64,000 nucleotides of DNA from Acetobacteraceae bacterium (GCA_965246915.1 CBDFGB010000018.1:11617-75616), one strand, 5' to 3'. Positions 46,138 through 59,800 are shown, numbered from the stretch's first letter. Program-made: numbers and translations. The notes: a model not told the origin generated them from the letters alone.

Positions 46138-46209
46138 GCCGGGTTAGCACAGCGGTAGTGCAGCGGTTTTGTAAACCGAAGGTCGGGGGTTCGATCCCCT
46201 CACCCGGCA
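46138..46209 (+). tRNA. tRNA-Thr: tRNA-Thr (anticodon UGU), CCA not encoded
   Basis: Hand-folded cloverleaf. Acceptor GCCGGGT/ACCCGGC; D arm GCAC-AGCGGTA-GTGC; anticodon arm GCGGT-TTTGTAA-ACCGA (TGT at positions 34-36, U33, A37); variable loop AGGTC; T arm GGGGG-TTCGATC-CCCTC; discriminator A. Confidence 0.85.
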
Positions 46210-47385
46210 TTCCAAGTGACTGATTTCCTTTAGCTTATTTTCGCCGCTCCGAGATCCTTCCAACTTGGCCCGAACGGCGACTCCTCGTTCCTTCCAACTG
46301 ACACTTTCAGTCCCGCCGCGGCTCCGCTCCAGCTTCGCCATGGCCGCCTCCGCATAGGTGTCGTCCGGCCGGACGTAGACCGCGACCACCTCACGCGTGG
46401 AATGGCCCGTCACCGAGCGAATTTCGTCGTCTGTGGCACCGGCCGCCCCCAGGGCCGTAGCCAGCGTGCGTCGCAGATCGCGGAACTGGAGATCGTGCGG
46501 CAACCCGGCCGCGGTGCGGATCTCGGCAAATAGGTGTTGAAACGCACTCTCGTGGTACGGCCGGCCTGTCGCCTCGTTGATGACCACCACGTCACCCCGG
46601 GTCTCGACGACGTCCAGCATGGCCCGAAGTTCGCGCGGCGCCGGAATGCCGATCTCCTTCCCGGTTTTCGCCTGGCGCAGCCGGATCGTCCGGCCGTCAT
46701 AGGCGGACCATGCGAGCGCTCGCAGATCGGCCGGACGCTGCCCGATGCACCACCCGAGCATGACCGCCAGCGCCATGGACGGCCGCTGCGCCGCGACCGC
46801 TGCGGCGCAAAACGTGTCCCGCTCGGCCAAGGTCCAGACCCGGGACCGCGACGCGCCGGCGGCTATGCGCATCCGCAAACATGGGTTGGCCGCGATCCAT
46901 CCTTCGTCGCAGCCGAATGAAAGCAGGCGCCGCAGCGCCGCGACGCTGTTCCGGCTCGTGTGCGCACCGTGCTCGTCTCGCTCGGCCCGATACCATTCCT
47001 TCACGGTCTTGCGCGTCAGCGCCCTGACGGGCTTCTCGCCCGCCCACGTAAGGGCGGCCTGTATGTGATAGCGGTAGTCGCTCTGACTTCGCGGACCGAG
47101 GCGGCGATATCCATCGTCAGTCTGGAAAAGATCGTTAAGCGAATGCAGCCCATCCTTACGTTGCGGCCGTAGCGGCGTGACCCCGAAGGGAGTGACACCA
47201 CCTCTCCGCCATGCGTCCAGGGTCGCATTCAATGCCTGCGCAGCCTGAATCGCCTCGCAAAGGTCATTGGGCAGCCGCCGCGTGAGGAAGCCGGCGCGGA
47301 CCAATGCGGCCGGGGGCTGCCAATACCATAGCGTGTGGGCCTTCTGGCGTTTTCCTACCAAATGCCTGACACCGATTTTCCTCAC
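46144..47385 (-). CDS. int: tyrosine-type site-specific integrase; ORF runs through attL into the tRNA
   Basis: GTG start. SAM-like N-domain and a catalytic domain with R (GQRPADLRAL), HDLQFRDLRRT, and GHSTREVVAVYVRP (H..Y). There is no in-frame stop until 46144, inside the tRNA 5' half. Confidence 0.85.
   Translation of the reverse strand: MRKIGVRHLVGKRQKAHTLWYWQPPAALVRAGFLTRRLPNDLCEAIQAAQALNATLDAWRRGGVTPFGVTPLRPQRKDGLHSLNDLFQTDDGYRRLGPRSQSDYRYHIQAALTWAGEKPVRALTRKTVKEWYRAERDEHGAHTSRNSVAALRRLLSFGCDEGWIAANPCLRMRIAAGASRSRVWTLAERDTFCAAAVAAQRPSMALAVMLGWCIGQRPADLRALAWSAYDGRTIRLRQAKTGKEIGIPAPRELRAMLDVVETRGDVVVINEATGRPYHESAFQHLFAEIRTAAGLPHDLQFRDLRRTLATALGAAGATDDEIRSVTGHSTREVVAVYVRPDDTYAEAAMAKLERSRGGTESVSWKERGVAVRAKLEGSRSGENKLKEISHLECRVRGSNPRPSVYKTAALPLC
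46167..46210 (+). repeat. attL core (3' part of tRNA-Thr from the anticodon stem onward)
   Basis: TTTTGTAAACCGAAGGTCGGGGGTTCGATCCCCTCACCCGGCAT is identical to 56760-56803. Confidence 0.9.
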
Positions 47386-47464
47386 GCTCGCCCGCTCCGC
47401 TATGCCCGCGGAGAACCTACACCGCGCACACCTGTCCGAGAACGTGCGCCGGCAGCATATTGCG

Positions 47465-47700
47465 GAGTGGGTCAGGTTGACGGACGATGCGGCGCAACCT
47501 GCGCCTCATTGCAAAGCCGGACAGAAGCAATTTCGGCCCAAGTTGGGCCGAAAGGTCGGAGCACCTCGCCGAGTGGGTCAGGCTGACGGAGAAGGTGGCT
47601 CAACTTGAGCCACCTTTGGGAGATCGCCGCGTGGAGCAGGCTGACGGATAAACCGGCGCAACTTTCGCCGATATTCCTAAAGGTTCTGCGCAACCTGCGC
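47465..47700. repeat. three degenerate direct repeats, each followed by a CAAC(Y)T-loop hairpin, plus a 23-bp palindrome
   Basis: The repeats GAGTGGGTCAGGTTGACGGA (47465), GAGTGGGTCAGGCTGACGGA (47571) and GCGTGGAGCAGGCTGACGGA (47629) each contain the dyad GTCAG-N-CTGAC or a near match. Hairpins lie at 47491-47505, 47594-47614 and 47655-47669, and GCGCAACCTGCGC recurs at 47688-47700. The palindrome TTTCGGCCCAA-G-TTGGGCCGAAA is at 47531-47553. Confidence 0.7.
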
Positions 47701-47784
47701 AAAACCCAAAGGGCGGTCGTCCTGGCGTATTCTCCGCTGCCGTCCGTGAACTCGGCATCGAACGAACGAGGCCCAGCGCGCCGT

Positions 47785-56731: not shown

Positions 56732-56759
56732 TTTACGAGGCTTTTATCCGACTGTTCGC

Positions 56760-56803
56760 TTTTGTAAACCGAAGGTCGGGGGTTCGATCCCCTCACCCGG
56801 CAT
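56760..56803 (+). repeat. attR core (displaced 3' tRNA-Thr fragment)
   Basis: 44/44 identity with 46167-46210. Upstream sequence (…ACTGTTCGC) does not form the 5' half of a tRNA. Confidence 0.9.
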
Positions 56804-56805
56804 GC

Positions 56806-59800
56806 CTACTCAATCCTCAGTATTCCTAGCGTCTCGCCGCCCTTGACCTCACGGCCGGGCGCGCAGAGCCACCTTTGAATACGCCCGGCGGCGCCGGCCA
56901 CGACGCTGATCTCCGTCTTCATCGATTCGATGATGGCAACCGCCTGGCCGGGGAACACGCGCTCGCCCACCGTCACGAGAACCTTCCAGACGATCCCCGG
57001 CACCGGGGACGCAAGGGCGGCGCAGCCGGTGGGGATGTCATCGGTGGCGACATCGGCTGTCTCCGCCGGCTCGAACCGGTCCAGTCCGCGCGCCGTCCAG
57101 TCCTGGCGTTCCGCCTCGAAGGCCGCCTGCTGGCACGCCCGCGCGACGGCGATCTCAGCCGCATGCCGGGCCAGGAACGTGTCGTACGCGACGGTCTCGA
57201 AGGCCGTCTCCTCAATACGGATATCGTAGCGGCCGTGCGGAAACGCCGCTCGCGCATCGAGAAGTTCCTCCTCCGAAACCGGAAAGAACCGGATCTGGTC
57301 GAAAAACCTCAGCAGCGGCCGCTTCGTGAACGCCGTCGTCCTGCGCCAGGAGTTCCAGACCTGGATGGTGCGGCCGAACAGCTGGTATCCGCCTGGCCCC
57401 TCCATTCCGTAGATGCACATATACGCCCCGCCGATCCCCACCGCGTTCTGCGGGGTCCAGGGCCGGGCTGGATTGTATTTGGTCGTGACCAGCCGGTGCC
57501 GAGGGTCCAGCGGCGTGGCGACCGGCGCGCCCAGATAGACGTCGCCCAGCCCCATCACGAGGTAGCTCGCGTCGAAGACGATCGCGCGCACGTCGTCTTC
57601 CGACGCGAGGCCGTTGATGCGGCGGATGAACTCGATGTTGGACGGGCACCAGGGCGCGTCGGCTCGCACCAGATCCTGATACCGCAGCATCGCGAGCCGC
57701 GTCTGTGGATCGTCCCACGACAGCGGCAAATGGACGATGCGGCTCGGGATCTTGACGTCGGCGGTAGACGACAGGCCCGCCTCGATCCGCGTCACGGCAT
57801 CCAGCAGGTATTGTAGCGACAGCGCCGCCGGATCGTAATGCACTTGGAGCGATCGGATGCCGGGCGTCAGGTCGATCACGCCCGGCAAGGCTTCGTCCTT
57901 CAGCGCGTCATGGAGCAGCTGCACCCGAAGGCGCAGGCGGATGTCGAGCATCAGCGGCCCGTATTCGATCAGGATGTTGGCGTCCCCGGCACGACGGACG
58001 ACGACGCTCGTCTCGCCGTCGATCCGCAGCAACACGGGATCGCCCGCCGGCTGCGACGCACTGTCCGGCGGGCCAAGCGACGGCGTCGCCAGGCGTCGGA
58101 AGCGGACCGTGTCGCCGGGCCGAAGGTGCCCCAGCTTCCACAGATCCTCGCTTGCCACCACGGCCGGGCAGACGAATCCGCCGAGGCTCGGCCCGTCCGG
58201 CCCGAGGATGATCGGCATGTCGCCGGTGAAGTCGACCGCCCCGATCGCATAGGCGTTGTCGTGGATGTTCGATGGATGCAGGCCCGCCTCGCCACCGTCG
58301 CGACGCGCCCATCGCGGCTTCGGGCCGATCAACCGGATGCCGGTCCGGGCGCTGTTGTAGTGCACCTCGTACTCACGGCCGAACAGATCGGCGATGTCGT
58401 CCGGATGGAAAAAATCCGGCGCGCCGTGCGGCCCGTAGAGGACGAGGAGATCCCACGCGCCGGTCAGCGGCGCGGGCGGCAGCGGCGGGCTTTCGACAGG
58501 TGGCTGATCGTCGAGCCGCAGCACATCGCCGACCCGCAGAACGCCGGTGGCATGGCCGCCAAACCCACCCAATGCGAAAGTCGCGCGCGAGCCCATGAAG
58601 ACGGGGGCCGCGATCCCGCCCCGCACCGCGAGCGTGGCGCGCATTCCGCGGCCCTCGATCGCACCGATCGTCAAGATTTCGCCACGCCGGACGCCGAACG
58701 CCGTGTCGTGCGGGACAACCGCGCCGTCGACGGTGGCCACCATTACCGCGCCGCAGATCGCGACGAGCGCGTCCGTGTCGAACCGCAACGTCGGGCCCGC
58801 CAGCGTCATCTCCAGCGCCGCCATCTCGGGCGGGTTGCGGACCAGCGCGTTGGCGCGGCGGTGGCTCCAGGGGTCCATCGGCCCGCTGGGCGGCACGCCC
58901 ACCGCCCAGGCGCCAAGCCGCCCGGGCAGTTCCTGCACGCTGCTTTGGGTGCCTGGCGACAGGACCGCGACCGCACGTGGCGCGAACGCGACGGCCGCGA
59001 GCGTGGCGGTCGTCATTTTCGCGTCGCCGAACGCCGGCACGTCGAGGATCGTCGCCAGATAGTCGAGGTTGGTTTCGACACCCCAGATCGCGCTCTCCGT
59101 CACGGCGCGTCGCAGGTTCGCGACGGCCTCGGCGCGTGTGTTGCCGCGGCCGATCAGTTTTGCCAGGAGCGGATCGTAGTGGGGCGTCACCTCCACGCCG
59201 GTTTCGATCCAGGTCTCGACGCGCACATTCGGCGCCCATCGCACCTCGGTCAGCAGCCCGGTGCTGGGGCGGAAATTCTCCGCGGCGTTCTCCGCATAGA
59301 CGCGCGCCTCGATCGCATGGCCGCGCGACATCAGCCGGTCCTGCGGAGGCAGGTCGAATTCGCCCGCCGCGTGCCGCACCATCCATTCGACCAGATCGAC
59401 GTCGAACACGTCTTCCGTCACGCAGTGCTCGACCTGCAGACGTGTGTTCACTTCCAGGAAGTAGAACGCCTCGGCGTGCGCGTCGTACAGGAACTCCACG
59501 GTCCCGGCGCTCGCGTAGCGAGCTCTTCGACACAGCGCGCGCGCGGCCTCATGCAGCGCCAAGCGCACCCTGTCCGACAGCCCCGGCGCGGGCGTCTCCT
59601 CAATGACCTTCTGATGGCGTCGCTGCAACGAACAATCGCGGTCGCCGAGGCTGACCACGCGACCCTCGCCATCGCCAAAGATCTGCACCTCGACGTGGCG
59701 AGCCTGAGCGACATATTTCTCGAGGTATACGCGCTCATCGCCGAAATTGGCCCGCGCCATCCGTTGCACGATCGTGAACTTCTCCACCAGCTCAACCGCG

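Follow-up and report, generated by a model that had tools for sequence, protein, structure and literature searches.

Within a 64,000-nt stretch of DNA from an Acetobacteraceae bacterium (GCA_965246915.1 CBDFGB010000018.1:11617-75616; the whole stretch is called the window below, and positions are counted from its first letter), we examined an element inserted in a tRNA-Thr gene that encodes its own HK97-type head proteins and in which no large terminase gene (TerL) was recognised. We consider it rather probable that this element is an integrated, probably functional capsid-forming satellite without a terminase of its own, which would obtain packaging motor, tails and lysis functions from a helper. 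All of its modules are intact, namely the integrase, the attachment (att) core and arm-type sites, the replicase, the capsid protein, the prohead protease and the portal. An earlier reading of the same DNA, made without database searches (the sequence-only reading), had named a tyrosine integrase, a Prim-Pol/AAA replicase, an HK97 capsid protein, an S78 protease and a portal, and each of these assignments is borne out by Pfam and PHROGs matches. It had also suggested a class of satellites that retain only capsid, protease and portal and take motor and tails from elsewhere. The comparative evidence supports such a satellite, with two qualifications: judged from homology, the element belongs to a TerL-less branch of a large family of ~10-11 kb elements, other members of which have HNH and TerL, and is not a separate class, and the borrowing is what we infer, with no helper identified.

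Terminase searches and the TerL-less branch of the family

None of the open reading frames (ORFs) of the element matched a terminase, HNH, tail, tape-measure, holin or endolysin profile in Pfam, PHROGs, NCBIfam or PADLOC. Hidden Markov models (HMMs) were also built from the TerL, small terminase (TerS), HNH and head-tail adaptor proteins of the element's own relatives and, with filtering disabled, searched against all six translated frames of the 64-kb window, where all matches had E > 0.1. For TerL neither the family HMM nor tblastn returned anything in the six frames; TerS models stayed at E > 0.2 and adaptor models at E > 0.4, and the best HNH match (E = 0.14) is located outside the element. 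Since no family HMM did better than E = 0.1, not even a pseudogene trace of these genes is indicated. With the profile searches and family HMMs in agreement, the earlier statement that the block has no terminase, tail, tape-measure, holin or endolysin gene stands. The largest unassigned ORFs, of 243 and 205 aa, are below TerL size, and a homologue of AlpA or Xis was not found in the element. The proteins encoded at 53949-54275 and 56134-56463 might conceivably act as adaptor or connector analogues.

When homologues of the capsid protein were collected, more than 1,500 were obtained, many of them on contigs of 9-12 kb; no GenBank phage exceeded 38% capsid identity. We retrieved 163 loci from genomes and IMG/VR (given below as L numbers). 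By tblastn, the non-canonical gene order capsid, protease, portal is found in all of the ~150 loci that hold all three genes, and the three genes of the window element are collinear with and homologous to those of the 163 loci (tblastn, trees). The integrase is usually next, followed by a tRNA gene, with insertion sites in tRNA-Ala, Thr, Phe, Cys and Glu, and the known hosts of the relatives are mainly Acetobacteraceae and other Alphaproteobacteria. Roughly two thirds of the family have a TerL (PF03354 + PF20441), which was detected in about 89 loci, 1.5-3.8 kb upstream of the capsid gene. Many of these loci also carry HNH and some carry TerS (phrog_83) or a head-tail adaptor (phrog_40, phrog_442); as far as gene content tells, the gene set of the TerL-bearing elements is that of phage-inducible chromosomal islands that form their own capsids (cf-PICIs).

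TerL is absent from about 40 of the 163 loci. They form several clades, among which TerL-bearing ones are interspersed in the capsid tree. The sequence-only reading had pointed to related genomes as the place to look for the same gene set, and the TerL-less layout was found in all of the closest relatives (capsid identity 62% for L001-3, 60% for L164-6 and 60% for L167). Terminal overlaps show that ten IMG/VR contigs of 9.96-11.26 kb were assembled as circles, and six of the ten are TerL-less (L096, L106, L109, L112, L137 and L150; 9.8-11.1 kb) with no space in any of the six for a 400-aa ORF. A 542-aa protein of L096 was considered as an alternative TerL and turned out to be a primase (phrog_29234). 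In fourteen chromosomal relatives, direct repeats derived from a tRNA flank the element at a spacing of 8.8-11.3 kb. A full-length prophage collinear with the block, which would have made the block a deletion remnant, was not found among the sized relatives (14 att-bounded and 10 circular; the other loci were not scanned for tail genes). The mean size of complete elements is 10.3 kb for the TerL-less (n = 18) and 10.5 kb for the TerL-bearing group (n = 8). This equality suggests that the ~1.9-kb HNH-TerL block was replaced and not simply deleted, and from the conserved size we infer selection on packaged length. TerS is kept without TerL in the TerL-less loci L109, L029 and L026.

The head genes of both groups were compared by dN/dS, in pairs that are phylogenetically non-independent and often saturated in dS. 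Values for TerL-less pairs were 0.09-0.27 (capsid), 0.13-0.37 (protease) and 0.05-0.57 (portal); those for TerL-bearing pairs were 0.13-0.25, 0.06-0.22 and 0.08-0.25, respectively. On these estimates the head genes of TerL-less elements are under purifying selection like those of TerL-bearing ones. The sequence-only reading had preferred a functional element to a prophage remnant, and the recurrence of the TerL-less layout in about 40 loci together with selection on the head genes upholds that preference. Signs of a decayed prophage are likewise missing: the genes are full length, the att repeats are exact and the sized relatives measure 8.8-11.3 kb. We concluded that the TerL-less form looks functional.

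The competing explanation that deserves most attention, although we hold it to be unlikely, is that the element is defective and derives from a capsid-forming satellite by loss of the HNH-TerL block; it would have ceased to be packaged and would survive only as an island that is integrated or, at the most, replicates. It would account for the fact that TerL, TerS, HNH, adaptor and excisionase are undetectable in the window element and present in relatives, for the split portal of the nearest relative, and for the failure to find the attP junction in JGI metagenomes or IMG/VR. It does not predict the lack of TerL or HNH pseudogene traces, the full length of all remaining genes with four translationally coupled junctions, or a whole sub-clade without TerL despite about 40% capsid divergence. 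Nor would dN/dS be expected to be as low as in TerL-bearing elements, or TerL-less elements to retain the family genome size and to occur as circular contigs.

For the reading of the element as a functional satellite without a terminase, several observations are unfavourable. Neither a helper nor a cos or pac site was recognised in the element, no excisionase, repressor, TerS or head-tail adaptor was identified among its genes, five of its ORFs are still without a function, and the excised attP junction of the window element itself was not recovered from the two metagenome collections just named. Circular assembly attests excision and replication, not packaging; some of the att repeats used for sizing relatives, having a length of no more than 15-17 nt, may have arisen by chance; and the pairs behind the dN/dS and portal-identity comparisons are not independent. 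The portal of the closest relative (L001-3) is split into two ORFs, a possible sign of decay. In L001 (8759-9948; also L002 and L003) these are overlapping ORFs of 278 and 135 aa, and the split is identical in the ENA, Logan and JGI assemblies; a genuine frameshift, programmed frameshifting or decay might explain it.

Two further features of the family concern the HNH-TerL position and the integrase. A small repressor gene (Arc-like or Xre-type), transcribed divergently, is enriched in TerL-less elements at the position that HNH and TerL would occupy, with 8 TerL-less versus 2 TerL-bearing loci counted, for example L004 7766-7996 (-), L097 4433-4591 (-) and cluster c16; the window element has no such gene. 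The circular contigs L109, L137, L106 and L096 (~10 kb) contain no homologue of the window integrase by tblastn, and some members of the family may be kept as episomes instead of being integrated.

Portal divergence and the possible source of the packaging motor

The comparison of portals was restricted to pairs with 65-98% capsid identity. Among pairs of TerL-bearing elements (n = 120) the median of portal minus capsid identity was -1.4 and the portal was more than 20 points lower in 0% of pairs, whereas the median among pairs of TerL-less elements (n = 24) was -13.8 and in 38% of the pairs the portal fell behind by more than 20 points. Protease identity follows capsid identity in both groups of pairs. 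The window element and L001 share 62% identity in the capsid protein, 57% in the protease and 34% in the portal. In the trees, which were built by neighbour-joining, the window portal belongs to a deep clade that also contains L150, L153, L089, L156 and L158, in none of which TerL was detected, and the capsid genes of the members of this clade are spread over three capsid clades. Enlarging the portal clade without TerL-bearing members gained only short contigs. These results fit an exchange of portals in TerL-less elements, which one would predict for portals that have to suit a foreign terminase.

A possible life cycle can be outlined as follows. Infection by a helper, or its induction, would turn on the replication and head operons together, and the element would excise and replicate from an iteron origin. 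Its capsid protein, protease and portal would form small procapsids fitting about 10.5 kb. A terminase supplied in trans, by a helper phage or a TerL-bearing sibling, would dock on the element's portal and package the element DNA, and tails and lysis functions would likewise come from the helper.

The source of the motor could in principle be a sibling in every case. According to this alternative, which we rate as improbable, the element would be a hyper-satellite that takes its terminase from a co-resident TerL-bearing sibling and its tails from a phage, a three-tier parasitism. The interleaving of TerL-less and TerL-bearing elements in the capsid tree is in line with it, as are the IMG/VR sample 3300047160, where TerL-bearing L147 and L149 were found alongside TerL-less L150 and L153, and two features common to TerL-less and TerL-bearing elements, the leader sequences and a MerR-type protein encoded upstream of the capsid gene. 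The portal data speak otherwise, since TerL-less portals diverge from TerL-bearing portals instead of staying matched to them. Furthermore, both elements of Roseomonas sp. KE0001, the sole genome of the set with two, are TerL-less, with no TerL-bearing element among the loci kept, and no shared cos-like DNA was found.

It is also conceivable, and in our judgement very improbable, that the capsid is not filled by a terminase at all, the shell being a protein compartment or being loaded by the replicase. Terminase-less small HK97 entities have been reported in metagenomes (bioRxiv 10.1101/2025.06.18.659913). Those entities are without a portal, whereas selection here maintains both a full-length portal and a maturation protease, and sibling elements carry TerL.

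A broader proposal, which is speculative and which we would not expect to hold in full, is that TerL-less capsid-forming satellites have a stable and widely distributed lifestyle with the portal as an exchangeable adaptor, swapped repeatedly to fit the terminase, and perhaps the tail, of a helper that may be a phage or a TerL-bearing sibling. If portal swapping were true, the portal clade without TerL-bearing members to which the window portal belongs would be a marker of heads that borrow their motor. Should a satellite with its own head and portal indeed rely on a foreign motor, the portal-terminase interface would be shareable between unrelated elements, and a new rung would be added between PICIs, whose heads and motor are both borrowed, and cf-PICIs, for which this is true of the tails only. 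The family supplies natural matched pairs with and without TerL in which portal-terminase compatibility is directly testable. Satellite finders that require TerL overlook a sizeable alphaproteobacterial group.

Likeness to known satellites

In the literature searched, no capsid-encoding satellite without a terminase has been described; cf-PICIs as well as MulchRoom and MiniFlayer all have their own. We compared the element with cf-PICIs by the SatelliteFinder definition of 11 core components (PMC10085698), in which TerL is one of the cf-PICI-defining markers (PMC10085698). Integrase, primase-replicase and a MerR- or AlpA-type regulator of cf-PICIs such as EcCIEDL933 are also present in the window element, and so are the HK97 capsid protein, prohead protease and portal, all well above the cut-offs. 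Both kinds of element lack tail and lysis genes (no tail or holin match in the window element), and the ~10-15 kb of cf-PICIs covers its size. The likeness is closer for the TerL-bearing siblings, which have HNH and TerL and in some cases TerS and a head-tail adaptor. The window element differs in having no TerL, TerS, HNH, head-tail adaptor or connector, in the order capsid, protease, portal instead of portal, protease, capsid, and in the position of its MerR-type regulator gene, which adjoins the capsid gene and not the integrase gene. Unlike the enterobacterial cf-PICIs, its relatives reside mainly in Acetobacteraceae and other Alphaproteobacteria, and the likeness rests on the gene set.

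Borrowing of a motor is a known strategy of satellites that do not make heads. SaPIs and classical PICIs use the TerL of the helper via cos sites or an own TerS, which may be compared with the TerL-less relatives that have TerS alone; they encode no capsid protein or portal and remodel the helper capsid, whereas the window element encodes both proteins. P4 is similar in size (11.6 kb) and in its integrase and primase-type replicase, and it is packaged by the helper terminase through a shared cos site (PMC10690885). However, P4 takes the capsid protein and portal of P2 and encodes only the size-determining Sid, while the window element has its own capsid and portal. The Streptomyces satellites MulchRoom and MiniFlayer are small and have their own capsid and portal like the window element, but they encode both terminase subunits and no replication genes (PMC10690885). 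Closest in lacking a terminase are the 'twilight-zone' mini HK97 entities, circular or terminally repeated molecules of <=11.6 kb with an HK97 capsid, an integrase and a Rep-type replicase (bioRxiv 10.1101/2025.06.18.659913); the highlighted group of these has encapsulin-like capsid proteins and no portal, in contrast to the portal and protease of the window element (bioRxiv 10.1101/2025.06.18.659913).

Boundaries, control regions and genes of the element

The integration target is a tRNA-Thr(UGU) gene at 46138-46209 (+; ARAGORN; Rfam RF00005, 67 bits), whose 3' part serves as attL; by ARAGORN and Rfam it is the sole tRNA in the 64-kb window, and Rfam detected nothing else on the island or in the whole window. 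The attL core at 46167-46210 and the attR core at 56760-56803 are exact 44-bp repeats, the latter a copy of the 3' part of the tRNA, and the longer direct repeat pairs 46164-46213 with 56757-56806 at a spacing of 10,593 bp. ARAGORN, Rfam and a check of repeat exactness thus leave the earlier description of an intact tRNA with a perfect 44-bp copy bracketing the block unchanged. The GC content is 0.60-0.66 in the island and 0.67-0.72 in the flanks. Beyond the attR core by 3 nt ends a carboxylase-like gene (56806-60315, -; 1169 aa, biotinyl domain), and the element fills precisely the gap from the tRNA to the stop codon of this gene. PLSDB plasmids matched the element only in the tRNA, and the tRNA was also the only conserved noncoding DNA between the window and the family loci.

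The tyrosine integrase is encoded at 46144-47385 (-; PF00589 E = 2.8e-16, phrog_1 E = 8.8e-38). Running on the strand opposite to the tRNA, the ORF crosses the 44-bp core and continues into the tRNA's 5' half before its stop codon is reached. Because the ORF reads through the core, the last ~20 residues would differ between the integrated and the excised form. A k-mer and motif analysis of both arms found TCCTTCCAAC twice in the P' arm, at 46254 and 46289 (span 46254-46298, +), and twice in the P arm, direct at 56676 and inverted at 56722 (span 56676-56734). Four copies within 90 bp of the core, distributed over both arms, give the layout of arm-type integrase sites, and the arm-type sites that the sequence-only reading had listed are accordingly confirmed.

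Three 57-nt repeats, found by repeat search at 47454-47674 (+), each consist of the palindrome GTCAGGYTGAC followed by a hairpin, and the sequence of the hairpin stem varies between copies with pairing retained. The copies lie in three different reading frames, which indicates elements that act at the DNA or RNA level, perhaps as iterons, as binding sites for a protein or as small RNAs. Rfam gave no match for them, and the related loci have no counterpart. They were ruled out as arm-type sites, as they are separated from the core by 1.2 kb, with the integrase gene in between, and the arm motif is TCCTTCCAAC. Between copies 1 and 2 the minus strand has a terminator-like hairpin (47553-47531).

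Two similar control regions on the plus strand were located by repeat search and sequence reading. The first, at 48115-48221 in front of the replication operon, has operator-like TGTAGC-N7-RCTAC sites at 48115 and 48150 and, after both of them, a promoter-like block CACCGCGCAGTAGATT-N17-TATAGT at 48183-48221. The second, at 52199-52262 in front of the head operon, has a third TGTAGC-N7-RCTAC at 52199 and another copy of the promoter-like block at 52224-52262. The consensus of the block duplicated before the two rightward operons is CACCGCGCAGTAGATT-N17-(T/C)ATAGT. Given the same promoter-like block and operator-like sites before both operons, common control of the replication and head genes is likely.

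The replication operon begins with a 205-aa protein (48255-48872, +; cluster c26) for which Pfam, PHROGs and further profile searches gave no match; its homologues are found directly upstream of the capsid gene in 4 relatives. The Prim-Pol/AAA_25 replicase follows at 48869-50866 (+; PF09250 E = 1e-22, PF13481 E = 4e-28, phrog_906). Directly after its stop codon, 50866-51000 is a candidate replication origin. Its 135 nt contain an imperfect palindrome of 24 nt and a dense iteron cluster of nine GGACA/TGTCC pentamers, a number that no other stretch of this length reaches in the 64-kb window, where the mean is 0.27. The ORFs drawn over this region show no coding signal. The 243-aa protein at 51216-51947 (+) matches phrog_4776 (E = 1.6e-7) and has relatives in L167 (2-1498), where a tandem double domain is encoded directly upstream of the capsid gene. 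Identity to the two L167 domains is 35% and 33%, with an invariant RG pair (R121, G122) and R167. Its AlphaFold2 model is unusable (pLDDT 45) and searches of PDB and PADLOC were empty. An assignment as ADP-ribosyltransferase-like (R-S-E motif) was dropped when Ser and Glu were seen to vary in the four-domain alignment.

The first gene of the head operon (52269-52694, +) encodes a 141-aa MerR-type winged-helix DNA-binding protein (AlphaFold2 pLDDT 81.6). Foldseek placed CvkR 7xn2 on top with TM 0.60. Family HMMs match the protein at E = 1e-5 to 7e-5, PF13411 is matched by 21 of 55 members of the family, and the family profile matches 7xn2 at E = 1e-9. The 68 members of this family are encoded just upstream of the capsid gene in TerL-bearing and TerL-less elements alike, and the protein may be the regulator of the duplicated promoter block. 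It is the protein that the sequence-only reading had offered as a TerS-like helix-turn-helix candidate. This part of that reading fails: the fold is of MerR type, the protein matches no TerS, and its model matches MerR regulators in the PDB and nothing significant in the viral structure library.

The capsid gene (52691-53938, +) overlaps the MerR-type gene at its start by ATGA. Its product, the HK97-type major capsid protein, matches PF05065 over residues 138-411 (E = 1e-35) and phrog_617 over residues 7-413 (E = 3e-71); the N-terminal ~135 residues outside the Pfam capsid domain occupy the position of a candidate delta (scaffolding) domain. Next is a 108-aa protein (53949-54275, +) with a strong coding signal, one Asp-box (SFDNGSTW) and PDB matches to BNR/Asp-box proteins at E ~5e-6. 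An Asp-box protein (SxDxGxTW) between the capsid and protease genes was found in only 2 of the 163 loci, the window and L098 (3329-3556), and it is possibly a capsid decoration protein. The S78 prohead serine protease (54272-54808, +; PF04586 E = 2.5e-37, phrog_80) and the portal (54805-56094, +; PF04860 E = 1e-58 over profile positions 2-320 of 321), which the portal tree assigns to a divergent type found only in elements where TerL was not detected, complete the head genes. A 109-aa protein (56134-56463, +) was matched by the HMM of cluster c51 (E = 1.8e-5); it has distant homologues in three other TerL-less elements and no other matches. The six ATGA junctions reported for the block all exist, but two of them (50863 and 51030) involve ORFs of 56 and 57 aa without coding signal (codon log-likelihood ~0), so the robust overlaps number four.

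A few candidates in the relatives were reassigned. The small ORF after the portal gene in many of them had been considered as a head-tail adaptor and is Xis/AlpA-like instead. Cluster c6, a small conserved ORF after the replicase gene, was considered as a cos site and has the substitution pattern of a real protein, and a noncoding block common to TerL-less L004 and L006 and TerL-bearing L011, also considered as a cos site, is a ribosome-binding site with a gene start. A distant branch of the family (L066, L068, L072, L082, L083, L056, L064, L020, L135 and L140) has the order capsid, protease, portal, TerS, TerL. This branch with a downstream terminase comes partly from Gamma- and Betaproteobacteria, and its units look ~10-11 kb long in the gene maps of L066, L082 and L020.

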